A stretch of 64,000 nt of DNA from an uncultured bacterium (GTDB lineage Bacteria; Omnitrophota; Omnitrophia; Omnitrophales; Aquincolibacteriaceae). Positions 28,982-64,000 of the stretch are shown here, one piece after another. A model generated the notes under the pieces. The model was not told the DNA's origin, did no database searches, and saw nothing but the letters and a program-made list of their open reading frames with translations. Each line of letters begins with the position of its first letter. Position 1 is the stretch's first letter. Where the stretch lies: NCBI GenBank assembly GCA_964562525.1, contig CAZLTL010000011.1:9780-73779 (forward strand), given 5' to 3'. Made by a program: the position numbers and the translations under genes.

Positions 28982-29055
28982 GCGGGATTCGTATAATGGT
29001 AATACATAAGCTTCCCAAGCTTGTAACACGGGTTCGATTCCCGTATCCCGCTCCA
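28982..29055 (+). tRNA. tRNA-Gly (anticodon CCC), CCA encoded
   Basis: hand-folded: acceptor GCGGGAT/ATCCCGC, anticodon loop TTCCCAA, T-arm ACGGG-TTCGATT-CCCGT, discriminator U, CCA. Confidence 0.8.
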
Positions 29056-29198
29056 TCTGTTTTTCCCAAGTTTTAATCCCACCAAAGAGTTACGACAAAT
29101 CAATCTTAAGTCCTTTAAATATCATTAATTGCAATCGAAGGTAATACAAGTCACCCCAAGTTAACAAAAGTTCTCGAAGTGCGTTTTTTAAGAATTTA

Positions 29199-37344: not shown

Positions 37345-38000
37345 AAAGCTTATTGAGAACGATGTCGATAGCCGCAGTGACGATGATCTTTTGCGGGCAG
37401 GTCATAGCGGCGCCTGAGGCGGGCAGTACCGATGTGCGTCAGGTACTGGTGGATTTAGAAAAGAAAATGTATTCGATTGAAACGATGCAGACAAACTTTT
37501 TTCAGAAAAAAAAGCTGAGTTTGTTTCAGCACGAAGTGCATCTGCAGGGGACTCTTTCGATGGAAAAACCGGACCGTTTAGCCTGGCATACGGAGCAGCC
37601 GGTGCGCTATTCGATTATTTTTGAAAAAAACAAAATTTATCAATGGGATGAAGACACGAAAAACGTGCAGGTCCTGACTTTCGCGAATGCGCCCATACTC
37701 AAAACCGTTATTGATCAAATGCAGACATGGTTTTACGGTTCGTATGTCGCTTTACTCGAACAATATGATATCCGTGTCATTTCTACGGAGCCGCTGGAAC
37801 TAGAATTTATTCCGCACGCGGATGTGGTTTCCGCCGCGGTGATCAAAGCGGTCACGATCCGTTTCATGCCCGATCAAAGTTACATTGAATCGCTGCGCAT
37901 CGAAGAGAAAAATGGCGATCAGTCTTTTTTAAGTTTTACTGATACGATTTTAAACGTAAAGATTGATCCCTCAGCCTGGAAAATTGAAAACCGTGGCTAA
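37341..38000 (+). CDS. LolA-like outer-membrane lipoprotein carrier-like protein
   Basis: signal peptide, ~200 aa periplasmic; typical companion of MMPL in aryl-polyene clusters. Confidence 0.5.
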   Translation: MKSLLRTMSIAAVTMIFCGQVIAAPEAGSTDVRQVLVDLEKKMYSIETMQTNFFQKKKLSLFQHEVHLQGTLSMEKPDRLAWHTEQPVRYSIIFEKNKIYQWDEDTKNVQVLTFANAPILKTVIDQMQTWFYGSYVALLEQYDIRVISTEPLELEFIPHADVVSAAVIKAVTIRFMPDQSYIESLRIEEKNGDQSFLSFTDTILNVKIDPSAWKIENRG

Positions 38001-40377
38001 TCAATCCGCTCTGACGAATGACGAAAAAATCCGCTTTTTTATTATCGTATGCACCTGTATTGCCTCGCTAATCGCGTTTATCGCGGTCAGCCGTATTCCT
38101 TTCAATAATGACATTGAGGTTATGCTTCCGCGTCAGCCCGAAGTTCTGCGCGGCTTCCATTTTTTTAGAGAATCTCCGTTAGCAAAAAATGTGGCGGTTT
38201 CTTTCGCGTTAAAGGATGCCGTGGGAACGTTTTCGGATTTGACTGTCGCGGTGGACCAATTTACCGTGAAGATTGATTCACCTATGATCACGCATGTGCT
38301 TTCGGGGTTGGAATCTAAGCAGTCATTGGATGAAATTCAAGAGTTTGTCAGACTCGCGCCGCAATTGGCCGGGGAAGAGCAATTGCTCGATATCGACGCC
38401 AAATTAAACGCGCCGGAAGTCAGTGGCAAACTGGAAAAATTTTATCGTACATTGATTTCTCCCGCGGGCGCGTTCATGGCGCCGGTGCTGAAGCAGGACC
38501 CATTGGGATTTCATGAAAAAGCTCTGCGGGATCTACAAAGTCTGCATGCCAGTATGGATTTTGATGTCCGGCTTCAGGATGGGTATTTGATCAGCCGGGA
38601 CGGGCGGCACGCGCTGGTTGTGATGGAAACCAATGTGCCGATTACCGACGGAGACGGAGCAAAAAAATTAATCAGCTATTTGGAAGGATTATTGAAACCG
38701 CTGCCGCCGCGTGTTTCCGCGGATTTAGTCGCGGGGCATCTGCATTCGATCAGTAATGAAAAAGTTATTAAGCGTGACATCCTCGTAACCTCGCTGGTTT
38801 CCTCCGCCGCGTTTTTAATTATTTTTATCGGGGTGTTTAAAGATTTCCGCGCCATTCTGCTTTTTACGATCCCGCTGCTTTCCGTTTTAATTTCTGTCCC
38901 TGTCAGCGCTTGGATTACCGGCCAGTTGTCATTTGTAATTATGGGTATGGCGGCGGTGATCGCGGGTATTGCCGATGATTATTGCATTCATGTTTACATG
39001 GCGATGCAGTCGGGGCAATCGCGCAAAGAGGCTATCAAGGAAGTCGCCGCGACCGTGACTACGGGCGCGCTTACGACCGTCGGCGTTTTCAGTGTTTTTC
39101 TTTTTTCAAAAGTGCCCGGCTACCGTGAGCTGTCGCTCTTGACCGTGATGAGCCTGCTTTTATCGCTAGGTTTCGCGCTTTTGATCTTGCCGTATTTTTT
39201 AGGTCCGAAAAAAAGCAAAGCTATTGAAAAACCCCGCGCCCTTGAATCCAATTTTCTTGATAAGCTCGTGATGATTATTTGGGGGATGCTGGTGATTGCG
39301 TGCATTGCGTTGATTCCGCGCCTGCATTTTCAAACTGATGTGAAACAGTACGATGGTAGTGAAGCTGAGGTGCTCCGCGCGGAAGATGATTTTGAAAAAA
39401 ACTGGGGTGGAAAAGACAAGCCGGCCATGCTGGTTATAACGGCCCCTGATTTTAACCAAGCGTTGGAAATGAATGATCGGCTGGAACCGGAAATTTCACA
39501 AGCCTTGAGCAGCAGTCCGCTGATCAATTTATCGGTGATTTGGCCGGATGAGAAAACACGCGCCGCGAATCTGGGTCGGTGGAATCAGTTTTGGAAAGAC
39601 GGGCGGGAAGAAAAACTGCGCGGTCTTTTTCAGGAGCCATCGGCGGAGTATGGTTTCGCGGCGGAGGCGTTTGATCCTTTCTTTAAGACATTGCGGCTGG
39701 ATGACGCCGGCGTGAAGGATTTTGAAAAGCTGGGTTTGCTCTCCAAATTGAAGCACCGGTTCGCGTTCGAATCCAAAGGCAGTTGGAAACTCATCAGTTT
39801 TTTTGAAGATAAGGAAGATTTGGTTGAGGCCGTGAATCAAAAAATCGCCGCTGTGCCGGAAGCGTTTGTGGTTTCTTCCAAGCGCTTTACGTCACTTTTG
39901 TCAGATTCAATTTTATCCGAATCGGTTTATATGGCTTCCGCCATCATGTTGATGATCTTAACCGTTACTTTTCTTTTTTTAAGAAATATCAAGCTGACGC
40001 TGATTGCGCTGATTCCCGTTGTGACGAGCATTTTATTTATTTTTGGGGCCGGTACGGTCTTGAAAATTCAGCTTAATGCCGCAAGTATGATTGCTTTGCT
40101 GGTGGTGGGGGGGCTTTGTATTGATTCGGGAATCTTCATGGTGAATCATTATCACCACCGTATAAAAACAAATACGCGCCGTTCCGTAACTCTTTCGGCG
40201 TTGACGACAATTATCGGCGCGGGCGCGCTAGTCTTCGCGAAGCATCCGGTTTTATTTTCTTACGGGACAACCATGGCTTTTGGGATTACGGCGGGCTATT
40301 TTTCGGCGATGTTTGTGGTGCCGGCAGTTTACAGACTGGCGATGCGGAATGACGCAGAAAGGGCGGCGGCAGTATGA
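37963..40377 (+). CDS. MMPL/RND-superfamily exporter
   Basis: 804 aa; two 6-TM bundles separated by large periplasmic loops. Confidence 0.7.
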   Translation: MIPQPGKLKTVANQSALTNDEKIRFFIIVCTCIASLIAFIAVSRIPFNNDIEVMLPRQPEVLRGFHFFRESPLAKNVAVSFALKDAVGTFSDLTVAVDQFTVKIDSPMITHVLSGLESKQSLDEIQEFVRLAPQLAGEEQLLDIDAKLNAPEVSGKLEKFYRTLISPAGAFMAPVLKQDPLGFHEKALRDLQSLHASMDFDVRLQDGYLISRDGRHALVVMETNVPITDGDGAKKLISYLEGLLKPLPPRVSADLVAGHLHSISNEKVIKRDILVTSLVSSAAFLIIFIGVFKDFRAILLFTIPLLSVLISVPVSAWITGQLSFVIMGMAAVIAGIADDYCIHVYMAMQSGQSRKEAIKEVAATVTTGALTTVGVFSVFLFSKVPGYRELSLLTVMSLLLSLGFALLILPYFLGPKKSKAIEKPRALESNFLDKLVMIIWGMLVIACIALIPRLHFQTDVKQYDGSEAEVLRAEDDFEKNWGGKDKPAMLVITAPDFNQALEMNDRLEPEISQALSSSPLINLSVIWPDEKTRAANLGRWNQFWKDGREEKLRGLFQEPSAEYGFAAEAFDPFFKTLRLDDAGVKDFEKLGLLSKLKHRFAFESKGSWKLISFFEDKEDLVEAVNQKIAAVPEAFVVSSKRFTSLLSDSILSESVYMASAIMLMILTVTFLFLRNIKLTLIALIPVVTSILFIFGAGTVLKIQLNAASMIALLVVGGLCIDSGIFMVNHYHHRIKTNTRRSVTLSALTTIIGAGALVFAKHPVLFSYGTTMAFGITAGYFSAMFVVPAVYRLAMRNDAERAAAV

Positions 40378-55430: not shown

Positions 55431-56095
55431 GTGCAGGCGTCAACTTAGGCGAAGTGATGCAAACACAAAGGGGTTTCGTGCCTAAAAAAGAAGCTGAGAA
55501 TAATCAGAGTAGTAGATCTAAGTTGTTGTGTTTCCTGATCCTTGTAACAGCAATATTTCAAGCAAATTTATTTGCTGAATCAAAGCTTTATCAGTTGGAT
55601 GCTTCGCAGAGCAAACTTTTGTTTGAAGTTAGCTCAACACTCCATAATGTCCAGGGGCAGGCAAAATCTTTGACAGGCAAAGTGGATTTTGATCTGGGCA
55701 CCGGGACGGTGAATTTTCCGATGCAAATTGAAATTATGGTTAATTCTATGGACACAGGTAATTCGAGACGAGATAACGGTATGCGCAAGATGCTCCAGTC
55801 GGAGCAATATCCGGTTATTCGCTGGAGTGCCACCCAAATCGACTGTCGACCGGGCGCGGTGGCTAAAACAATGCTGTGTGATGCAGCGGGAATCTTGGAT
55901 ATTAGAAATATTAAACGTGAAAAGAAATTTCAAGTTTCACTTACTTTCCATGAAGGTCAGATTCATGCAAAAGGGGATCTGAGTATCGAGCGCAAGGACT
56001 TTGAATTGAAAACACCGTCTTTGCTTGGAATTGTGCGCGTGGGACAAGAAGTAAAAATAAAATTTGAAGCGATTTGGGTGTCGGAATCAGTTTGA
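55427..56095 (+). CDS. YceI-like polyisoprenoid/lipid-binding periplasmic protein
   Basis: signal peptide; SKLLFEVSSTLHNVQG region typical of YceI family. Confidence 0.55.
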   Translation: MSAGVNLGEVMQTQRGFVPKKEAENNQSSRSKLLCFLILVTAIFQANLFAESKLYQLDASQSKLLFEVSSTLHNVQGQAKSLTGKVDFDLGTGTVNFPMQIEIMVNSMDTGNSRRDNGMRKMLQSEQYPVIRWSATQIDCRPGAVAKTMLCDAAGILDIRNIKREKKFQVSLTFHEGQIHAKGDLSIERKDFELKTPSLLGIVRVGQEVKIKFEAIWVSESV

Positions 56096-56121
56096 GAATT
56101 ATAGTAAAGAAAGGAAATTCC

Positions 56122-56562
56122 ATGTTCAAGAGTTTAACCGTGACTTTAAGTTTGATGTTTATGCTGGTGTTTACGATGAGTGCATGCACTTCGATAAATG
56201 TGCGGCCTCTTGATGCTGCGGCTTATATGCAGCACGTGTGCATTGAAGATAATCCGAAAGTAATCGTGGAAGATTTTGTCAGCGTTGTTCGGGATGGTTT
56301 TACCCGCCACGGAATTTCCAGCGAGGTTTATTCTGGGGCGAAGCCAGCGAACTGTGAATATACTTTGACCTATAGTGCCTTGCGCTCCTGGGACGGTGTG
56401 CCGTATTTGTCAAAAGCAGAACTTCGTTTACAGAGAACTGGGCGAGAGGTTGCGGCGGCAGAATATCGTTTGAAAGGCGGGGGCGGATTTGCTCTAACCA
56501 AATATCAGGGTGTTAAAACCAAAATGGATCCTGTTATTGACGAATTGCTGAAGAATTATTAA
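56122..56562 (+). CDS. lipoprotein (hypothetical)
   Basis: lipobox TMSAC; internal ATG of ORF 56074. Confidence 0.4.
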   Translation: MFKSLTVTLSLMFMLVFTMSACTSINVRPLDAAAYMQHVCIEDNPKVIVEDFVSVVRDGFTRHGISSEVYSGAKPANCEYTLTYSALRSWDGVPYLSKAELRLQRTGREVAAAEYRLKGGGGFALTKYQGVKTKMDPVIDELLKNY

Positions 56563-56729
56563 AAAAAATGTTCGATGTAACCCGCGCAGTTTTTATTGTG
56601 TGCATTTTTAATCTTATTAAAATAGAGAGCGGGCACTGAATTATGCAAAGAGATATTTGGGCAAGATATCAACAATGATTCAGTCATTCTGACATGTCTG
56701 CTTTGCCATATATGTAGCAATTTAGCTGA

Positions 56730-56746
56730 GATCAGTTGTATCAATT
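56730..56746 (+). repeat. 17-nt motif GATCAGTTGTATCAATT (copy 1)
   Basis: second copy GATTAGTTGTATCAATT at 57022-57038. Confidence 0.5.
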
Positions 56747-56747
56747 C

Positions 56748-56834
56748 AAAGGCTGCAGGAATTGAAAAACAGTATTAGCAGTATTCTTTTCAGTTTTGAT
56801 TGGAATACGACATCTTGAGGGTGCGGAGCTTTAA
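56748..56834 (+). pseudogene. 3'-terminal fragment (approx. last 28 codons) of a paralog of the zinc-ribbon gene at 57160-57531
   Basis: ~75% nt identity to 57447-57531; translates ...FSVLIGIRHLEGAEL* versus ...LSVLIGLPHCEVTEL* in the intact copy. Confidence 0.45.
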
Positions 56835-57021
56835 TCGATTTTCATCGCTTTGATTTAGCATTGCTCATTTTTCAATCTTTAATTCAAATTAGTTTGAAGC
56901 CCTTTGTGTGAATTATTTTTAATTAGTTAAATCTGATTAAGAAAATCCTGCCTTGTTTTTTCTCTGCGAAACAAAACATTTATAAACATTTGCTGGTGCA
57001 TAGAGCGATCTATCATTAGTA

Positions 57022-57038
57022 GATTAGTTGTATCAATT
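57022..57038 (+). repeat. 17-nt motif GATTAGTTGTATCAATT (copy 2), 120 nt upstream of the zinc-ribbon gene
   Basis: see copy 1. Confidence 0.5.
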
Positions 57039-57159
57039 AATATCACTCAAAAAATAATGCAGGGTGTTCATCTATAAATTAAGAATTCATCAAGTACATT
57101 TCAAAGAGATAGATACGGGGGATGTTCATTCGAAAAAAGGAAAGGGGGGTGATGATTAA

Positions 57160-57531
57160 GTGAACGGTCTTAAAGAAAAAAGTCTGCCGAAAATCAATGA
57201 GCTTGATATGAAGTTTGAGTTTGGCGGGATTAAATGTCCTGAGCCCGGATGTCGGCAAACTCTTTTTGAGATAGAGAAGAGTTTTTTGGTTGTTGGGCCG
57301 GACATATCACTTTGCCGGAAATGCGGAAGCAAAACTTCGCTGCTGATGTATTCGTACAGCGAGACTGAACCGGGGAAATTGATTGTAAGATGGTATTGTT
57401 CGGCGTGTCGTGAGGAATTCGACCGCCACATTCCATCCATTCGAAAGTACTGCAAAGGCTGTAAAAAGTTTCAGCAGATATTTCTTTCGGTTTTGATCGG
57501 ACTTCCGCATTGTGAGGTTACGGAGCTTTAA
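57160..57531 (+). CDS. Cys-rich multi-zinc-ribbon protein (hypothetical)
   Basis: 123 aa; CPEPGC, CRKCG, CSAC, CKGC pairs; GTG start with G-rich SD. Confidence 0.45.
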   Translation: MNGLKEKSLPKINELDMKFEFGGIKCPEPGCRQTLFEIEKSFLVVGPDISLCRKCGSKTSLLMYSYSETEPGKLIVRWYCSACREEFDRHIPSIRKYCKGCKKFQQIFLSVLIGLPHCEVTEL

Positions 57532-57971
57532 TCCAATCTCTTCAGCTCGTGAAGTTTCGGGCTGGCGGGTTGGTCTCTTCTTTTTTTTCTCTCCTTTAAG
57601 TGCCACTACACTCTTTTTTGACTCTACCAGTAAATATTTTCAGACGCACTACACTTGCCTTGTTTCAAATTCGTTTTAATTACTGATATGAATCCTGCCT
57701 GAATTGTCACTATCCACTTTGTGCCATTTGAGATGCGTGAATTGTGTTTCCTCGCCTCTACACCCTAAAAAACCGTCGAAAGCATTTCCGACTTTGCAGC
57801 AGATGTTTCCCTTCAGGAAATCATCGGGCCCGACAGTTATGTGTATGGACTTGCGATATTTGATGTTCGAAGCTTAACGCCCGGACAAAAATCTGTGTTT
57901 CAAATGACCGAAAAAGAAGGGCAAAGAAGTATTACGATCAGAAACTTCAACTGGCTGAAACAGGTGAAGCC

Positions 57972-58955
57972 ATGATTGAAAAAGAGACGATTCAAAGCAC
58001 GGAGTCAAAGTCCGCAGCGCGATCAAAACTTCCTGAGAAAGAATTCTTTGACCGAGAGCCGAATTTTGATGAGCCAGGAAATGATTCAACAGGGAAGTGG
58101 AGCAAAAAGCGTTGGTTTGGCGTTCTCTTAGTTGGAGCAGCGCTTCTTCTGATGTTTGTATTTGTATCTAAAGGCTGCAGCGGTGATCGGTCCAAGAGTA
58201 ATCGACTCGCTTCAAGTGAGGAAAAGCGTGAAACCGTGACGCAGTCCTCAATGGAGCGGGCAATTCAAAACTCACGCCCTAAAGAAGATGCGCGCGTCGA
58301 ACAACTCAGTAATCCTAGGCAATTAAAGAGCAAAGAGCGTACCTTCAAAAGCGATATTGCTGTGTATCTCTATGAAAACAAACCTCAGGAAAGTGAATCC
58401 AAAAGATCGGCTCCGATTAAGGAGGCCAGACTCGGGTTGCCGTCCGGAACAAAAATTCGGGCACTGCTGGAAGATCGAGTTTTTAGTTTTAATGTCGCCG
58501 CCCCGCTTCTCGCGATTGTTCCGAAAGACTTTAAATGGGATGGGAAGACTATTATCCCGAAAGGGTCCAAATTTTTAGGCGAAGCCAATGTCTTGAAGTC
58601 TCTTGACCGGATCAATGTCAGTTTTGACTTGCTTATTCTTCCTGACGGATCGGAATTGCGGGTGAGGGCTATGGCACTTTCTGAAGATGGGGCAAGTGGC
58701 ATACGCGGGAAAGTGGATAAGCATGGGGATACGAAAATCCTTAAAGCAATTGGTGAAACGCTTCTCGGCGGTGCCAGCCTATTTGTTGGAGGTACACGAA
58801 GCGATCCTTACAGCCTCAACGATCAGTTGCGTACCAATCTCGCACAAAATTTGACGAATCAGGCTGCACAAGACTTAAGAGACGTGCGAGTTGATAAGTC
58901 TGTGACGGTGGAAGCCTCAACACCGGTGCAAGTAATGATTCTCGAGGCTATTTAA
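57972..58955 (+). CDS. VirB10/TrbI-like bitopic protein (orphan)
   Basis: 327 aa; cytoplasmic N-term, single TM (WFGVLLVGAALLLMFVFV), charged linker, C-terminal domain with TrbI-like pattern (GLPSGTKIRALLEDRV...IIPKGSKFLGEA...GSELRVRAMAL...GIRGKVDKHGD). Confidence 0.5.
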   Translation: MIEKETIQSTESKSAARSKLPEKEFFDREPNFDEPGNDSTGKWSKKRWFGVLLVGAALLLMFVFVSKGCSGDRSKSNRLASSEEKRETVTQSSMERAIQNSRPKEDARVEQLSNPRQLKSKERTFKSDIAVYLYENKPQESESKRSAPIKEARLGLPSGTKIRALLEDRVFSFNVAAPLLAIVPKDFKWDGKTIIPKGSKFLGEANVLKSLDRINVSFDLLILPDGSELRVRAMALSEDGASGIRGKVDKHGDTKILKAIGETLLGGASLFVGGTRSDPYSLNDQLRTNLAQNLTNQAAQDLRDVRVDKSVTVEASTPVQVMILEAI

Positions 58956-58970
58956 AACCAAGGAGAAAGA

Positions 58971-59219
58971 ATGACTAAATCAGGCGGGAATGGTGAGTTT
59001 AAAGAAATTCAGAAGGTGCATGTACTGCAGACTCGCAAGGGTGAAGAGTTGCATTTTTCTGTGGTTGAGCTTGGTGGGCAGCCCAAAGTGGATATTCGTT
59101 ATTTTTCAAAAACCGAAGAGGGACTACGCCCCACACATCGAGGCATCGTCGTGGACATCGCAAAATTGGACGACTTGATGGAAGGCGCTCAGAAACTGGT
59201 GTCTGTAATCGGAAAGTAA
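58971..59219 (+). CDS. PC4/YdbC-like ssDNA-binding protein
   Basis: 82 aa; VDIRYF...GLRPTHRGIVVDIAKLDDL matches PC4 C-terminal fold pattern (DIREyy..Gk.kpgkKGIsL). Confidence 0.4.
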   Translation: MTKSGGNGEFKEIQKVHVLQTRKGEELHFSVVELGGQPKVDIRYFSKTEEGLRPTHRGIVVDIAKLDDLMEGAQKLVSVIGK

Positions 59220-59238
59220 ATAAAAGCTTATTCACAAC

Positions 59239-59270
59239 AGGAGCCTGCGTTATTGCGGGCTCCTGTTTAT
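59239..59270 (+). terminator. hairpin CAGGAGCC-12 nt-GGCTCCTG followed by TTTAT
   Basis: 8-bp perfect stem seen in sequence; weak T tract. Confidence 0.4.
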
Positions 59271-59274
59271 AAAG

Positions 59275-60567
59275 GTGATCGAGATGAGACAAAAAATGTA
59301 TTTGGCAATATGGGCGGTCTTTTTATTAAGTGGAGTGAACTCCTATGCAGGAACTGCGGAGTTAAGTTTACAAGACTTTGGCAGAGTAACATCCATTGAT
59401 GATGCGATATCGCGGACTATTGATAGCAGTGCGCAAGTAAAGTCCGCGATCGCACGATTAGAGAAGGAAAAGTCGCTCTACCGTGGTAGCAGAGCCGAGT
59501 TTTTCCCTAAATTAGGTACGGAAATCTTTGCCGCAGGGGCAACGGGTCAGAAAAGTACGGTTTCATATTTTCAGACAACATTGGAACAGCCCCTATTTCA
59601 GGGCGGGAAGTTATTTTACGGGAAAAAGAAACAGAAGGTTCGTGTTGAAGCAGAAGAGATTCGGTTGCAACAGGAAAAACTAGATTTGGCATTGGAGGTA
59701 AAGTTGATTTATGCCAGTGCTTTAAATGAGAAAGAGCTGCTGAGAATCTCTCAAAATGAGGTTCGAGAAATATCGAGAAGCCAAGCCTGCTTTAAAGCGT
59801 TATATGAAAACATGATTGTATCCGCAGCTGAAATAAACCGTATCAATTCCATGCTCGCAAGTGCGAAAGAAAAAACCGTCAGGCATAAAGAAAATTACGA
59901 TTACTTAATGTCTGTGCTGAAGCAAGTCATGGATATCGATGACTCAGAAATAATCGAGCTTCAACCAGTAAGCGAGCTGCCGGCAATTGAAGACTCAGTT
60001 ATGGAGTACCTGGATGCTTATCGGAAAACAAACGCGGCATATAAGCTAACTGAACTTGCGGTGAAAGAAAAAGAATTTGAAAAAAAGATAATTCAGGCTG
60101 ACCGCTATCCTCAAATAAGTCTCGCCGTAAAGTGGGATGTTTATAACGACACCTTTGTGGGTAACAACCGCGCCATGGCCGGAATCATCGGGAAGTGGGA
60201 TATCTGGGATTTCGGACGCGTGGGTTCAAAGGTTAGTGCTAAAACTCATGAAATTGAAGAGGTTAAATGGGCTAGCCGTGCCAAGATTTTAGAGGAAGAG
60301 AGGGAAATATATCGCTTATTCCACGATGCTCGGGCAATCAGAGGAAAAATTCAAATGTTTGATGTCCAAATCGTCGAGCTGCAAGAGTATTACAAGAATG
60401 AAAAAGTTCGTCTCATTGCCGGGCAGAAAGCAGATGCCGAAATTTTGGACTCATTTCTGAGCCTTGAAAATATGCGCATATCGCAGATTGAAGCGATTAC
60501 AGATTACAGAGCAATTTTGTATAAGCTGCAAAGCAGCCTTCAATCCAGCGGAGGTAAAGATGCCTAA
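59275..60567 (+). CDS. TolC-family outer membrane efflux protein
   Basis: 430 aa; signal peptide; tandem coiled-coil/beta repeats typical of the OMF family. Confidence 0.65.
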   Translation: MIEMRQKMYLAIWAVFLLSGVNSYAGTAELSLQDFGRVTSIDDAISRTIDSSAQVKSAIARLEKEKSLYRGSRAEFFPKLGTEIFAAGATGQKSTVSYFQTTLEQPLFQGGKLFYGKKKQKVRVEAEEIRLQQEKLDLALEVKLIYASALNEKELLRISQNEVREISRSQACFKALYENMIVSAAEINRINSMLASAKEKTVRHKENYDYLMSVLKQVMDIDDSEIIELQPVSELPAIEDSVMEYLDAYRKTNAAYKLTELAVKEKEFEKKIIQADRYPQISLAVKWDVYNDTFVGNNRAMAGIIGKWDIWDFGRVGSKVSAKTHEIEEVKWASRAKILEEEREIYRLFHDARAIRGKIQMFDVQIVELQEYYKNEKVRLIAGQKADAEILDSFLSLENMRISQIEAITDYRAILYKLQSSLQSSGGKDA

Positions 60568-62113
60568 TTATTTACGACGCACCCAAGTATTTCTCCTGGC
60601 TGCCTTCTTCATCACATTGGTGGTTACGGTCGCTGTCGCCTCGACGGTCATTTACACCCGAGAAACATTTTGGGTAAGCACATTGTGGATTTCCGGGTTT
60701 TGCTTTTTGTTTTTTAATGTGGCTTTGATTTTGTTGCAGATGATTGTTCGCCCATTTATTAAAGTCCCAATATTAGAGGAGACATTTGTTGGCGATTTTC
60801 CTAAGACGGCATTGGTCTATCCGGTTCGCAATGAATATCACGGTTTGTTTGAACGGATTAATTATTCGTTGTCGGGGAACATATTGCCAAACCTTGATTT
60901 GTGGATACTTTCTGATTCCTCGGCCGACTTTGAACTTTTTGAACAGCGTATTGTTGAGCAGCTAAAAGCTAAGTACGCAGGTCGGATTTATTATCGGCGT
61001 CGAGAAGCACCGGTGGAACGCAAGCAGGGCAACATAAGCGAATTTGTTTCCAATCATCCCGAGTATCAGTTTCTCTATGTTTGCGATGCCGACAGCATGG
61101 TGGTACGAGGAACAGTTTTAAAGTTGCTTCGGAAGGCGCTCCATTTCAAGAATCAAGATGTCGCTATATTCCAGTGCATGGTGAAAATTACGCATGCGAA
61201 AACCTGGTATTCAAAGTTTGAAAAAATATGCGCGGAATCGTCTCAGAAATTCAGTTTTACTGCCTTGCAGGCGATCTTCGGCAGGCTTATTTCTTTTGGA
61301 CATCATCATCTTGTCAGAACACGGCTACTCGCAAGCATTAAGCTTCCGAAGGGGCTTCTTTCACATGACAATTGGGATACCGCGCTACTCGATCAAGCAG
61401 GATACCGCGTTGTGTTTTGTCCGGATGTTTGTGGATATGACGAAGCACCTTCGAACTATATCGAGGCTAGAGCACGAAGCAGGCGTTGGTCGCAAGGAAC
61501 TTTGCAAGGCTTGCCGCTTATTACCATGCCCAAGATAAGTTTGGCATCAAGATTCTTGGCGAGTTATGGAATTTACTTATATCTATCGGATCTTGTTTTC
61601 TTTGGGTGGGTGGTATTAGGCGTGCTGGCACGCTCCGCGCCTTTTGGTGAGCTCATTTATTTTAAAATAGATTCGATTTGGCTTGGTTTTTACACCAATA
61701 GCATTTTGAAATTTGTGCTTGGGCTTTCCTTGGGCGTTATCTTCTTCCATAAACTTGTCATTGTTCGTTCATGGAAGGACTTTCGCAGTTATTGTTATGA
61801 AACAATTCTATCCACACTCATTACGCTCAATAACTTTGTCTATGTTCCTCTTGATATCTTGACATTGCCATTGCGCAAACTGGCGTGGAAACCAATGTCG
61901 AAAAATCCGTTTCAAGAATTAAAGCTATCGCAGGCGTTTAGCAAGCTCTGGATTGGAACACTTTTTGGATTGTACGGGTTTTACTTTTGCTTAAATGAAA
62001 CGCCGTATTTCATTTGGCAGGCAACTCCGATTTTAATGAGCTTGGTGTTATCGATTCCAATGGTATATGGCACATCAAAAAATATACCCAATTCCGTTAG
62101 TCAGTGGATTTAA
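60560..62113 (+). CDS. processive family-2 glycosyltransferase, membrane-embedded (OpgH/MdoH- or cellulose-synthase-like)
   Basis: N- and C-terminal TM bundles; catalytic motifs LSDSS, RKQGN, DADS (DxD), SHDNWDTA, RSRRWSQG (QxxRW); internal ATG of ORF 60464. Confidence 0.6.
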   Translation: MPNYLRRTQVFLLAAFFITLVVTVAVASTVIYTRETFWVSTLWISGFCFLFFNVALILLQMIVRPFIKVPILEETFVGDFPKTALVYPVRNEYHGLFERINYSLSGNILPNLDLWILSDSSADFELFEQRIVEQLKAKYAGRIYYRRREAPVERKQGNISEFVSNHPEYQFLYVCDADSMVVRGTVLKLLRKALHFKNQDVAIFQCMVKITHAKTWYSKFEKICAESSQKFSFTALQAIFGRLISFGHHHLVRTRLLASIKLPKGLLSHDNWDTALLDQAGYRVVFCPDVCGYDEAPSNYIEARARSRRWSQGTLQGLPLITMPKISLASRFLASYGIYLYLSDLVFFGWVVLGVLARSAPFGELIYFKIDSIWLGFYTNSILKFVLGLSLGVIFFHKLVIVRSWKDFRSYCYETILSTLITLNNFVYVPLDILTLPLRKLAWKPMSKNPFQELKLSQAFSKLWIGTLFGLYGFYFCLNETPYFIWQATPILMSLVLSIPMVYGTSKNIPNSVSQWI

Positions 62114-62126
62114 TTACCTCAAGGAG

Positions 62127-63053
62127 ATGAAAATGACAGTCGCAGATAAAAGTAATGTAAGCGGAGCAGAAGGAAAAGAGCCTTCCTTGTTTCAGGATCA
62201 GCCCAAATCAGGTGGTGGTTTTCGATGGATGTTGATTCTGATCGCCATACTTGCCATTGCCGGGTTTTGGTATGTTTATAGCCCAGAACTAGAGACGGCC
62301 GGGCAAATTAAATCAGAGAGGTTTGTGCGGGTGGGTGTGGTTGTTCCGGGGATCTTAAAAGAACTGGATGTAAAAAAAGGAGATCGCGTTAAGGCGGGTG
62401 ATGTTGTTGCGAAACTTGAAAACCCGGATTTGGCCCAACAGCTTAAGAGCAAGCAGATTGAAATCGAAAAGCTGAATTTTGAAAAAAATGTACTAATTAA
62501 ACAGCAAGACCATGCGGCGCTTGATGTTTCACGAGTCACACTTCTGTATGAAAACAAGGTGGCAAGTAAATCGGTCGTCGAATCAAAAGAGCTGGCATTA
62601 AGTCAGTCCAAGGACGATGTGGAAGCAAAGCAGAGGGAAATTGATATGGTTCGGTCGCATCTTGAGTTGTTGAAGGCTCAAATAGCGAATATGGAGATCA
62701 GAGCACCGTTTTCGGGAGTCATACTCGCTACGCAATTGGAGATGATAGGAAATTACCTTAAATCGGGGGAAGAACTGGTTCAAATGGCAGAACCGACCAC
62801 TTTTTATCTCGAGGCGGGAATTCCGGAACGACTCATTAATAGGTATAAGGTTGGGAACAAAGTTCAGGTGCGCTTTGAGGGTTATCCGACACATATATAT
62901 AGTGGGGAAATTACGGGGCTATCCTTGTCGATCCATGAGGAGGTTGAGAAGGTATTTAAGATAAAACGCATGGTTGCCTGTCATGTCCGATTAGATGCGA
63001 TGCCGCCCGAGATTAGATATGGGACTCAGGCGGTAGTAACTATTAAGTCGTAG
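62127..63053 (+). CDS. HlyD-family periplasmic adaptor (membrane fusion protein)
   Basis: N-terminal TM, biotinyl/lipoyl-like hairpin (GDRVKAGDVVAKLE), coiled coil, C-terminal beta-barrel. Confidence 0.65.
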   Translation: MKMTVADKSNVSGAEGKEPSLFQDQPKSGGGFRWMLILIAILAIAGFWYVYSPELETAGQIKSERFVRVGVVVPGILKELDVKKGDRVKAGDVVAKLENPDLAQQLKSKQIEIEKLNFEKNVLIKQQDHAALDVSRVTLLYENKVASKSVVESKELALSQSKDDVEAKQREIDMVRSHLELLKAQIANMEIRAPFSGVILATQLEMIGNYLKSGEELVQMAEPTTFYLEAGIPERLINRYKVGNKVQVRFEGYPTHIYSGEITGLSLSIHEEVEKVFKIKRMVACHVRLDAMPPEIRYGTQAVVTIKS

Positions 63054-63155
63054 GCCGGTCTGTTTTAACGAATTGGGGCAATTGGGAAGAATAAATAGAC
63101 ATCTTTTGGTAAGATACTCAAAGTTTGAGGCAAAATCCAACTCGAGAGATGTTTA

Positions 63156-63365
63156 ATGAAATTTCCTGCAGGCACAATTGAGCTGAATGAAGCTGCTAAA
63201 AAATTCGGCTCAACTTGGGGAGCGCTTCGTAGAGCCATCTACAGAAAGCGGCTCAATGGGTTTAAGGTCGGATTAACTTGGTTTAGCACGGAATCAGAAG
63301 TTAAGCGATATCTTAAAACCCGGAATGTGGAAAAGATACCAGTGAGGTATAGAAAGAAGACTTGA
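63156..63365 (+). CDS. excisionase/AlpA-like helix-turn-helix DNA-binding protein
   Basis: 69 aa; TIELNEAAKKFGSTWGALRRAIYRKRLNGFKVG matches the HTH_17 excisionase-family pattern. Confidence 0.45.
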   Translation: MKFPAGTIELNEAAKKFGSTWGALRRAIYRKRLNGFKVGLTWFSTESEVKRYLKTRNVEKIPVRYRKKT

Positions 63366-63454
63366 GGGGGTAAAAAAATTTTGTTATTATGTGTCTATCA
63401 AATGGACACATAGAAACAAGGCATTTAAGTCAGAGTGAGTAAAAGCCGGTTCCT

Positions 63455-63493
63455 TCTTGTTGTAGCTCTTACCTAAAGTTCATAACAACAAGA
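63455..63493 (+). promoter_or_regulatory. 9-bp inverted repeat TCTTGTTGT-N21-ACAACAAGA just upstream of the second xis-like gene
   Basis: seen in sequence. Confidence 0.25.
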
Positions 63494-63501
63494 GGGGGTG
63501 T

Positions 63502-63705
63502 TTGATGGTAATTACGAATCATGCGGATGGCAGCACGCGTCTGCTTACATCAGAGGAGATAGCAGCTATTTTGAAGATTTCATTGAATACGGTGCATAGC
63601 CGGGAATGGCAGAAGCGGAACCGTTGTCCGCTAATTAAAATTGGGAAGCGACGCTACTCAGTTGAAGCAGTATTTTGGAAATGGGTTAACTCAAGGGGAT
63701 TGTGA
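63502..63705 (+). CDS. second excisionase/AlpA-like HTH protein
   Basis: 67 aa; LLTSEEIAAILKISLNTVHSR...IKIGKRRYSVEAVFWKW. Confidence 0.45.
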   Translation: MMVITNHADGSTRLLTSEEIAAILKISLNTVHSREWQKRNRCPLIKIGKRRYSVEAVFWKWVNSRGL

Positions 63706-63708
63706 TCG

Positions 63709-64000
63709 ATGGCAACACTGATCAGGCAGTACCCTGGGATTATATTTCGTGAGGGGAAAGACAAGGTTGATAAAAATGGGCGCTTTGTCTGTCAGATTAA
63801 CTTTTGTCCGTTCCCCAATAAGCGTGTTTACAAAACTATTCGGCTGGAAAGAAAGTCGTATCGTGAAGCTTCTGAAATCAGAAATTCTTGGATTAATGAA
63901 TATCTGCAAAAGCATCCGCACCAATCGCTGGAAAATAAGAAGGATCTTTCATTTTCCGAGTTGAGAAATGTTTTATTGCGGATGATGGAATACAACCACA
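63709..64000 (+). CDS. 5' end of a probable tyrosine-integrase-like ORF (Arm-type N-terminal DNA-binding domain), runs off the window
   Basis: open frame with no stop from ATG 63709 to 64000; GRFVCQINFCPFPNKRVYKTIRLERKSYREAS resembles the P4-type integrase Arm domain; stop-overlapping start (TGATCGATG). Confidence 0.4.
   Translation, partial: MATLIRQYPGIIFREGKDKVDKNGRFVCQINFCPFPNKRVYKTIRLERKSYREASEIRNSWINEYLQKHPHQSLENKKDLSFSELRNVLLRMMEYNH

Follow-up and report, generated by a model that had tools for sequence, protein, structure and literature searches.

A compact OpgH-like glycosyltransferase encoded between TolC-type and membrane fusion protein genes in Omnitrophota: a putative trans-envelope polysaccharide synthase and exporter

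Export of a polysaccharide from a family 2 glycosyltransferase (GT2) through a membrane fusion protein (MFP) and TolC has already been proposed, namely for the Xcs and Bgs systems. Here we describe a related gene trio in a window of 64,000 nucleotides from an uncultured bacterium of the Omnitrophota (GenBank assembly GCA_964562525.1, contig CAZLTL010000011.1, positions 9,780 to 73,779). Region 59275-63053 of the window contains three open reading frames (ORFs) of the same direction, which code for a TolC-family outer membrane factor (OMF), a GT2, and an MFP. New in comparison with Xcs and Bgs are the OpgH type of the synthase, the TolC encoded in the same operon, and the linkage to a type IV secretion system (T4SS). 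Judged by sequences and structural models, the trio is probably a self-contained trans-envelope synthase and exporter of a polysaccharide, most likely of a β-glucan.

Among the known synthases, Cgs and OpgH (MdoH) appear to be closest to the GT2. Cgs shares with it the succession SHD...E.P...R..RW.xG and the C-terminal bundle of transmembrane (TM) helices. However, Cgs comprises about 2800 residues with extra cyclase (GH189) and phosphorylase (GH94) domains, and relies on the ABC transporter ChvA/NdvA for the export of its product, whereas the GT2 of the window has 517 residues, lacks extra domains, and would use an MFP-TolC route. OpgH consists, colinearly with the GT2, of N-terminal TM helices, a GT-A domain, and C-terminal TM helices, and both have the signatures ILSDS, YRRR..K.GN, DADS, GH, LSHD, E.P, and R.RRW.QG.LQ in common. 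In contrast to the GT2, whose gene sits between those of TolC and MFP, OpgH is encoded next to opgG and its products are periplasmic. Osmoregulated periplasmic glucans (OPGs) normally stay in this compartment (PMC10514313).

For the export of extracellular cellulose in cyanobacteria, a tripartite XcsA-XcsB-TolC system was proposed (Maeda et al. 2018, reviewed in PMC12430437). The review calls the model unvalidated and asks whether it is applicable to operon-organised clusters. Like the trio, Xcs combines a processive GT2, an adjacent gene for a HlyD-like MFP, and a TolC-like outer membrane exit. In contrast, its synthase is BcsA-like and c-di-GMP-regulated and its TolC is encoded elsewhere; here, the synthase is of the OpgH type, has no PilZ domain, and has its OMF gene in the operon. 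In the case of BgsB-BgsA from Sinorhizobium meliloti, which makes a mixed-linkage β-glucan, TolC is genetically required for polymer production, and the genetic study of 2026 left open whether it acts directly or indirectly (PMC13438883). The GT2-MFP gene pair and TolC are common to Bgs and the trio. However, BgsA is BcsA-like and c-di-GMP-activated, its tolC is an unlinked housekeeping gene, and there is no association with a T4SS.

Three further classes of systems are similar in part. The Bcs, Pga, and alginate (Alg8-Alg44-AlgK-AlgE) machineries also consist of a processive GT2 in the inner membrane, a periplasmic partner, and an outer membrane exit. Their exit is a porin of 16-18 strands, whereas here it is a TolC α/β-barrel and no c-di-GMP receptor was found. 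EmrAB-TolC and MacAB-TolC possess an MFP and a TolC-fold OMF of the kind found here, but in the trio the gene of the inner membrane partner codes for a glycosyltransferase and not for an MFS or ABC transporter. Finally, relatives of the locus carry TrbC/VirB2, VirB3-like, VirB4, VirB8, VirB9, and VirB10 genes and a recombinase, as is the case for VirB/Trb-type (MPF-T-like) T4SS. Unlike these, the Omnitrophota clusters embed a putative polysaccharide synthase and exporter after virB10. The literature searched contained no description of this Omnitrophota cluster, of an OpgH-MFP-TolC system, or of a polysaccharide synthase in a T4SS operon.

The predicted synthase, its two putative partners, and their conserved gene order

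The GT2 matched the Pfam families Glyco_trans_2_3 and Glyco_tranf_2_3 with E-values of about 5e-11 each. MdoH/OpgH was the closest named family in NCBIfam (best E-value 8e-52), and the match covered positions 24-571 of the 704 positions of the MdoH model. Over its full length, the GT2 could be aligned colinearly with seven MdoH sequences at 23-25% identity; its chain ends directly after the last TM helix. An alignment of 74 sequences, which comprised the GT2's own family and 13 MdoH sequences, contained 18 invariant residues, among them S118-D119, K155, D176, D178, G247-H248, H269-D270, and R306/R309/W310/G313. Invariant or nearly so are the motifs S118-D119, K155/G157/N158 (ERKQGN, 153-158), D176xD178 (CDADS, 175-179), H269-D270 (SHD), and R306/R309/W310/G313 (RSRRWSQG, 306-313).

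A profile of the GT2 family gave a single match in the PDB, which was Cgs (E-value 2e-5) and extended over the motif succession and TM bundle named above; the lone sequence yielded a chance match only. The AlphaFold2 (AF2) model of the GT2 (pLDDT 94, pTM 0.91) was most similar to Cgs in a Foldseek search (E-value 1.6e-19, query TM-score 0.73-0.74), followed by BcsA, HAS, and plant CesA/CslF6. The top 40 matches were all Cgs, BcsA, HAS, CesA, CslF6, Fks1, or chitin synthases. Model and motifs thus combine a GT-A domain on a channel-type TM bundle with the Q/RxxRW element of processive synthase-translocases. Due to the MdoH alignment, the invariant motifs, and the preference for the Cgs fold, the GT2 is predicted to be a membrane-integrated processive synthase-translocase, nearest to the two known lineages of β-1,2-glucan synthases, OpgH and Cgs. 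The initial annotation, which was made from the sequence alone, had claimed a full processive motif set and the lack of an obvious PilZ or GIL domain. Both statements hold: the motifs are conserved as described, and neither PilZ, GIL, nor another c-di-GMP domain was matched by Pfam in the GT2 or the MFP. The HMM search which it suggested led to the above families, and the case that it had named as refuting, a non-processive transferase, is at odds with the proximity to MdoH, the processive-synthase folds, and the invariance of R309 and W310. A search for the exact GT2 sequence found no record, and a tblastn search of the known plasmids in PLSDB with the GT2 retrieved just MdoH-type genes of at most 28% identity.

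The MFP scored above the cutoff of the RND_mfp family TIGR01730 (3.6e-29; 101.7 versus 94.9 bits) and matched HlyD_D23 and HlyD_3 (about 1e-15) as well as Biotin_lipoyl_2. These matches agree with the lipoyl, α-hairpin, and β-barrel domains of the adaptor family, and a TM scan predicted a single N-terminal helix, in line with its membrane anchor. The closest solved sequences were EmrA (5.7e-10) and MacA. EmrA and MacA partner with inner membrane proteins that lack large periplasmic domains.

The OMF contains two OEP repeats (Pfam, 2.3e-26), matches the TolC family TIGR01844 (2.8e-19), and begins with a Sec signal peptide readable in the sequence (MRQKMYLAIWAVFLLSGVNSYA/GT). Its AF2 model, which was based on 39 homologues (pLDDT 82), displays four β-strands and two helices of 67 residues. 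This is the long-hairpin protomer of the TolC family, and Foldseek superposed it on TolC with an E-value of 3e-17, a TM-score of 0.75-0.77, and an rmsd of about 4.5 Å; the OMF sequence itself had no match in the PDB. A sequence identical to the OMF (P0121) was recovered only on a Logan contig of 1975 bp.

ORFs and the Pfam and NCBIfam matches agree with the trio of OMF, GT2, and MFP which the initial annotation had placed in this region. Of the 4-nt overlaps or short gaps that it gave for the junctions, the 4-nt overlaps have to be corrected. The ORF of the OMF spans 59275-60567 with ATG 59284 or 59296 as the likely start; the second one corresponds to the annotated OMF start in L144, a relative with 96% identity. 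The GT2 ORF opens mechanically at TTG 60464. Its real start is ATG 60560, which has a GGAGG in front of it and an 8-nt overlap with the OMF stop (ATGCCTAA) and leads to a protein of the same length as its homologues. The likely start of the MFP, ATG 62133, lies 19 nt past the GT2 stop and agrees with the length of 306 residues annotated in L144. Overlaps of 4 nt do occur in the gene calls of the two related loci L001 and L003, at the junctions OMF/GT2, GT2/MFP, and MFP/next gene.

To what extent the three genes stay together was determined for 58 loci from GTDB species representatives, which were annotated by means of phmmer; the query sequences were taken from the window and from three reference loci. 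Adjacencies were counted in the 49 loci whose GT2 is at least 38% identical, and the denominators are the loci with enough flank. About 105 clusters of 38-96% identity make up the GT2 family, and nearly all of them bear the label Candidatus Omnitrophota; MdoH follows as the next group, with about 26-30% identity. An MFP gene adjoins that of the GT2 in 40 of 40 loci (39 downstream, one upstream). An OMF gene lies directly upstream of the GT2 in 27 of 32 loci, and in three more it follows the MFP as an OMF fusion, which raises the number to 30 of 32. The synthase-MFP adjacency of Xcs and Bgs is thus shared, whereas the GT2 is not a BcsA-family synthase with a c-di-GMP domain as in those systems. 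An order that is repeated in dozens of independent loci is very unlikely to be a chance arrangement. Furthermore, the trio of the window is under selection (dN/dS 0.14-0.21 versus L144).

OMF and MFP might instead be parts of an adjacent ABC, RND, or MFS pump. This assignment was rejected, as no transporter is found in the module. Next to the trio of the window there is no ABC, RND, or MFS gene; the neighbours are VirB10-like and PC4-like genes upstream and helix-turn-helix (HTH), Xis, and integrase genes downstream. In 27 further loci, the GT2 is the sole gene between OMF and MFP. No such transporter gene was found inside the module in the T4SS-type and OMF-fusion-type loci examined. The nearest one in the window is an MMPL/RND-like gene about 20 kb away (37963-40377), which is part of an aryl-polyene cluster; in a locus from Rudaea, ABC and RND genes occur a few kb upstream. 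Adjacency, overlaps, and the lack of a transporter thus leave the pump-accessory alternative, which the initial annotation had itself raised, unsupported. The comparison of genomes that it had called for speaks for co-occurrence of the three genes.

Clues to the polymer

One clue comes from a sister branch without T4SS genes (L005, L043-L045), whose GT2 is about 41% identical. There, the gene that follows GT2 and MFP (10502-14071 in L005) codes for a fusion protein of 1189 residues, which consists of a TolC-type OMF, a GH144-type domain, and TPRs. In L005, OEP was matched with an E-value of 7e-49 and PF10091 with 2.4e-53. The closest PDB entries of the middle domain were XcSGL/XCC2207 (8xul, 7e-40) and CpSGL (5gzh, 3e-30), and both are GH144 β-1,2-glucanases (PMC12102758). 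The fusion with a domain of the β-1,2-glucanase type would place the OMF of this branch in contact with a glucan. It also unites the hydrolase and TPR elements that are typical of synthase-dependent exopolysaccharide systems according to the scheme of Whitney and Howell. A GH144-type domain co-occurs with the GT2 in a second, independent lineage: in Rudaea, the gene of a GT2 with about 32% identity stands between a short MFP-like gene upstream and a nucleotidyltransferase gene downstream, and the cluster contains a separate PF10091 protein of 515 residues (9e-73). In the Omnitrophota, a sugar-1-phosphate nucleotidyltransferase is encoded directly after the MFP in 28 of 37 loci. OpgG and OpgD did not turn up among the neighbouring ORFs scanned, albeit a systematic search for them was not made.

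Because the GT2 is specifically OpgH- and Cgs-like, these findings point to a β-1,2-glucan. A β-1,2-type glucan is our best guess on the basis of sequence comparison, with chances that are about even. It is also conceivable, as a tentative possibility, that another homo- or heteropolymer takes the same tripartite route, for example a modified polymer of hexosamines or a glucan with β-1,3, β-1,4, or mixed linkages. The identity of the GT2 to MdoH is low, the sugar-modifying enzymes in Rudaea and a nucleotidyltransferase that is unspecific by sequence would be compatible with other sugars, and CBM11- and CBM30-like modules occur in associated small proteins and in giant neighbours. The families CBM11 and CBM30 bind β-1,4 and mixed-linkage glucans. 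However, both profile and fold are nearest to OpgH and Cgs, ahead of BcsA, and it is GH144-type domains that accompany the GT2 in the two lineages.

The T4SS element and its remnant in the window

In the Omnitrophota, the trio belongs to a larger, integrated VirB2-VirB10 element. In every main-clade locus with enough flank, the upstream order on one strand is a sigma70-region-4 HTH protein, a TrbC/VirB2 pilin, a VirB3-like protein, VirB4, an unknown protein of 255 residues, a VirB6-like protein, VirB8, VirB9/CagX, VirB10/TrbI, and a small protein of 82-90 residues. In the Omnitrophota T4SS clade, OMF, GT2, MFP, usually the nucleotidyltransferase, and a tyrosine or serine recombinase come next; in many cases, two small CBM11-like paralogues and a YhcG nuclease are encoded before the recombinase. 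In six loci, the recombinase gene lies directly beside a tRNA gene. VirB11 was not detected in the T4SS clusters with a trio. The small protein, which is PC4-like, was found between VirB10 and OMF in every T4SS-trio locus (e.g. L001 6314-6568; L003 6506-6751). PC4 proteins have a fold that binds single-stranded DNA. Judged by this similarity, the small protein may bind DNA, which would agree with a T4SS that transfers DNA.

The pairwise identity matrices of VirB4 and GT2 are strongly correlated (r = 0.987; Mantel test, 0/2000), and the mean identities are similar (0.57 for GT2 versus 0.53 for VirB4). Hence, the trio has been inherited stably together with the rest of the element and is not shuffled cargo. 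In a neighbour-joining tree (no bootstrap), the GT2s with T4SS linkage constitute a derived clade inside lineages without a T4SS, which suggests that the T4SS element acquired an older GT2-MFP(-OMF) module. Sister T4SS clusters on metagenome contigs (L073-L080; VirB4 32-34% identical) run from VirB4 to VirB10 and an integrase without the trio; upstream, they encode a type IV coupling protein (T4CP) and fn3/Ig surface proteins of 877-1757 residues. Several metagenome-assembled genomes contain two to five copies. In single genomes, two to four separate contigs have a GT2 locus and are possibly distinct copies (L016/L019/L024; L017/L018/L025/L033; L014/L021; L015/L030; L036/L037; L013/L059). A mobile element that is active, or was so until recently, would be compatible with this finding.

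Distant relatives of the GT2 have giant ORFs directly beside them, which range from 2395 to more than 3029 residues (L058 1645-9984, L054 2792-9976, L047 2712-11798). The one in L058 contains CBM30, GH43/BNR-like, and LamG modules, that in L054 RHS repeats, CBM30, and CBM11; the one in L047 had no informative Pfam match. Each of them is similar to the small CBM11-like protein that the T4SS-trio elements encode, although in L047 the match is weak (E-value 5.5e-5).

The window holds a truncated remnant of this element. Positions 57767-63689 share 96.2% nucleotide identity with contig L144, and this homology has sharp ends. In L144, an intact VirB9/CagX of 324 residues precedes VirB10. Of the T4SS, the window retains only VirB10 and a 68-codon remnant of VirB9; VirB2-B8 and the greater part of VirB9 have been lost, as has the nucleotidyltransferase. 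The core set of VirB4 together with VirB2, B3, B6, B8, B9, and B10 is thus complete in relatives but not in the window. A recombinase is present at the end of the element (Xis and integrase, 63506-64000). The features are listed in Table 1.

Table 1. Features of the T4SS-trio remnant and its surroundings (positions of the window; Pfam, AF2, and other evidence as indicated)
Feature	Position	Strand	Evidence and remarks
tRNA-Gly(CCC), probable attachment site	28982..29055	+	ARAGORN; 3' end (29036-29063) repeated after the L144 integrase
VirB9/CagX-like C-terminal remnant, ~68 codons	57769..57972	+	phmmer to CagX of L001 and L003; left breakpoint
TrbI/VirB10-like T4SS protein, intact, 327 aa	57972..58955	+	Pfam TrbI 3e-16; dN/dS 0.10 versus L144
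PC4-like small protein, 82 aa	58971..59219	+	Pfam PC4 1.4e-5, 25.0 bits = cutoff; dN/dS 0.05
14-bp GC-rich hairpin, then UUUAU	59236..59267	+	-30.1 kcal/mol, z = -5.1, 0/200 shuffles as stable
TolC-family OMF with Sec signal peptide	59284..60567	+	alternative start 59296; Pfam OEP, TIGR01844, AF2/Foldseek
OpgH/MdoH-like, Cgs-like compact membrane-integrated GT2, 517 aa	60560..62113	+	putative β-glucan synthase-translocase; NCBIfam, alignment, AF2
MFP (periplasmic adaptor), 306 aa, one N-terminal TM helix	62133..63053	+	TIGR01730, HlyD_D23, HlyD_3, TM scan
Small ORF, putative DNA-binding protein of the integration module	63157..63366	+	read from the sequence; in the L144-like 96% region
Excisionase-like HTH_17 small protein	63506..63706	+	L144 counterpart: weak PF12728 HTH_17
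Tyrosine integrase, 5' part, runs off the window	63709..64000	+	57% identical (aa) to the N-terminal part of the Phage_integrase protein in L144

In both copies, small HTH/Xis genes and an integrase gene come after the MFP, and L144 has no nucleotidyltransferase either. As VirB9 is intact in L144, the loss of the nucleotidyltransferase predates the truncation of the VirB genes. The N-terminus of the integrase is only 57% identical at the amino acid level, compared to 96% nucleotide identity of the trio; the integration module has therefore been swapped and the element is a mosaic. The 3' end of the tRNA-Gly (window 29036-29063) is repeated at L144 8173-8202, about 80 nt after the integrase, where no tRNA was called. 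Judged by this repeat, the 3' end is probably the att site, and the island of the window would run from 29056 to beyond 64000. It may then take in the aryl-polyene cluster. The initial annotation had described the segment as mobile-element-like, which agrees with the integrase and Xis genes, the ends of the L144 homology, the tRNA repeat, and the tRNA-abutting recombinases of the related loci.

Upstream of the VirB9 remnant there are a gene-poor stretch, genes for a lipoprotein and a YceI protein, and the aryl-polyene/flexirubin-type cluster (29547-54329), which lies between the tRNA-Gly and the T4SS remnant. It encodes an aromatic amino-acid lyase, several ketosynthases, an ApeP-like dehydratase, LolA, the MMPL/RND-like exporter, DUF3261, a thioesterase, a GT2+DUF2062 protein, and a lipid-A-type acyltransferase, followed by a FAD-oxidoreductase/AMP-ligase fusion and an O-methyltransferase. 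The gene-poor stretch (56563-57767) is located left of the breakpoint and contains direct repeats (56782-56846 and 57479-57543), which are 75% identical and about 700 bp apart. A Cys-rich ORF of 123 residues (57160-57531) had no Pfam match, and the PC4-like protein had no match in the PDB.

The hairpin in front of the OMF may be an attenuator, a terminator, or an RNA-stabilising element. In other loci, the gap between the PC4-like protein and the OMF is too short to accommodate it (e.g. 34 nt in L013). No riboswitch or other Rfam element was matched in 56000-64000 at E ≤ 1, and a consensus scan of 56500-64000 for promoters and terminators gave counts that were not above those of shuffled sequence.

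Could the trio of the window be a non-functional relic of a decayed mobile element? The deletion of VirB2-B8 and most of VirB9 (breakpoint 57767), the absent nucleotidyltransferase, and the swapped integrase module are compatible with this explanation. We nevertheless regard it as unlikely: the five remaining genes (VirB10, PC4-like, and the trio) are full length, free of frameshifts, and have dN/dS values of 0.05-0.21 versus L144. Moreover, the loss of the nucleotidyltransferase is older than the truncation, and UDP-glucose is available in most cells.

Proposed mechanism and its meaning for the Omnitrophota

The reading of the trio as a tripartite synthesis and export system, already put forward in the initial annotation, is supported by folds, motifs, synteny, and the absence of another transporter; from these we infer physical coupling of the three proteins and secretion of the product. 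At the cytoplasmic face, the GT-A domain of the GT2 (D119, D176xD178, H269-D270, R309-W310) would polymerise glucose from NDP-glucose. The product, most likely a β-1,2-linked glucan, would be threaded through the enzyme's own TM channel and passed to the single-TM, EmrA/MacA-like adaptor without the periplasmic release that is characteristic of OpgH products. The adaptor may sit over the GT2, as in EmrA- and MacA-type systems with partners that lack periplasmic domains, and may bridge to a TolC-fold trimer, such that the polymer would leave the cell through a sealed duct.

Several observations weigh against parts of this interpretation. The best MdoH score of the GT2 (PRK05454) is 176.3 bits, compared to a cutoff of 419, and the score is below the cutoff in all nine models. 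The GT2 lacks the C-terminal cytoplasmic tail of MdoH (about 110 residues) and has shorter loops. In L049 and L050, no OMF is within reach. The nucleotidyltransferase is generic, with its best matches all below the cutoff, and the copy in the window is accompanied neither by this enzyme nor by a glucanase. In Rudaea, genes for an aminotransferase, a kinase/isomerase, and a radical-SAM enzyme are further parts of the locus and would be in keeping with a modified sugar. The expression of the T4SS genes and that of the OMF could be uncoupled by the hairpin that lies between them. With respect to DNA transfer, no relaxase was found within 7 kb upstream and 8 kb downstream of the trio-type clusters, where flanks are limited, and a T4CP-like ORF was found in L059 only; the search returned regulators, toxin-antitoxin genes, an amidoligase/GATase, the YhcG nuclease, and unknown proteins.

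The GT2 might also be a normal enzyme of the OpgH type, with osmoregulated glucans of the periplasm as its product, while MFP and OMF serve an unlinked transporter for efflux or type I secretion. MdoH is indeed the best named family of the GT2, OPGs are normally periplasmic (PMC10514313), and the TolC of Xcs and Bgs is shared with other pumps. We consider this distinctly unlikely, since the GT2 is bracketed by OMF and MFP genes whose reading frames overlap or nearly abut, since this adjacency is maintained from 38% to 96% identity without a transporter in the module, and since the OMF is fused to a β-1,2-glucanase-type domain in the sister branch. The lack of OpgG and OpgD among the ORFs scanned points in the same direction, within the limits of that scan. 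That the trio provides structural accessories of the T4SS machine, such as an outer membrane conduit or a pilus or surface glycosylation, is very improbable: although the Omnitrophota trio always follows virB10 on the same strand, is co-inherited with VirB4, and is replaced by large fn3/Ig surface proteins in sister clusters, the clusters already encode VirB9 and VirB10 as the canonical outer membrane core, fold and motifs of the GT2 are those of polymer synthases and not of protein glycosyltransferases, GT2-MFP-OMF modules (L005, L043-L045) and the GT2-MFP pairs of Rudaea exist without T4SS genes, the T4SS-linked GT2s are nested in the others in the unbootstrapped tree, and the trio of the window is intact after the loss of most T4SS genes.

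Given a tripartite exporter, a function in cell contact is attractive, because the element encodes CBM11-like proteins and giant CBM30/CBM11/RHS ORFs stand beside distant GT2 relatives. In Agrobacterium, attachment and T-DNA transfer need the β-1,2-glucan of ChvA/ChvB. By analogy, and as a rather doubtful proposal, the exported glucan might be a working part of the T4SS element in the ultra-small Omnitrophota: together with the CBM11-like proteins and, in related lineages, the giant CBM-bearing proteins, it would glue a donor to its recipient or host and thereby allow the VirB machine to engage. If true, this coupling of glucan and T4SS would be a hard-wired counterpart of ChvA/ChvB and the first polysaccharide synthase/exporter of a T4SS operon.

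The direct route from a synthase via an MFP to TolC has so far been a model based on unlinked genes (Xcs, Bgs). The GT2 family offers many natural trios that are encoded in one operon, translationally coupled, and often accompanied by a sugar-activating enzyme, and with 517 residues the synthase is compact and suited to reconstitution and cryo-EM. The trio is also a candidate source of rare β-1,2-glucans. On the level of the family, the OpgH lineage would extend from periplasmic oligosaccharides to secreted polymers. The Omnitrophota are a phylum without isolates, whose lifestyle was inferred to be host-dependent (PMC10066038), and the linkage to the T4SS provides a testable handle on their cell-cell contact.

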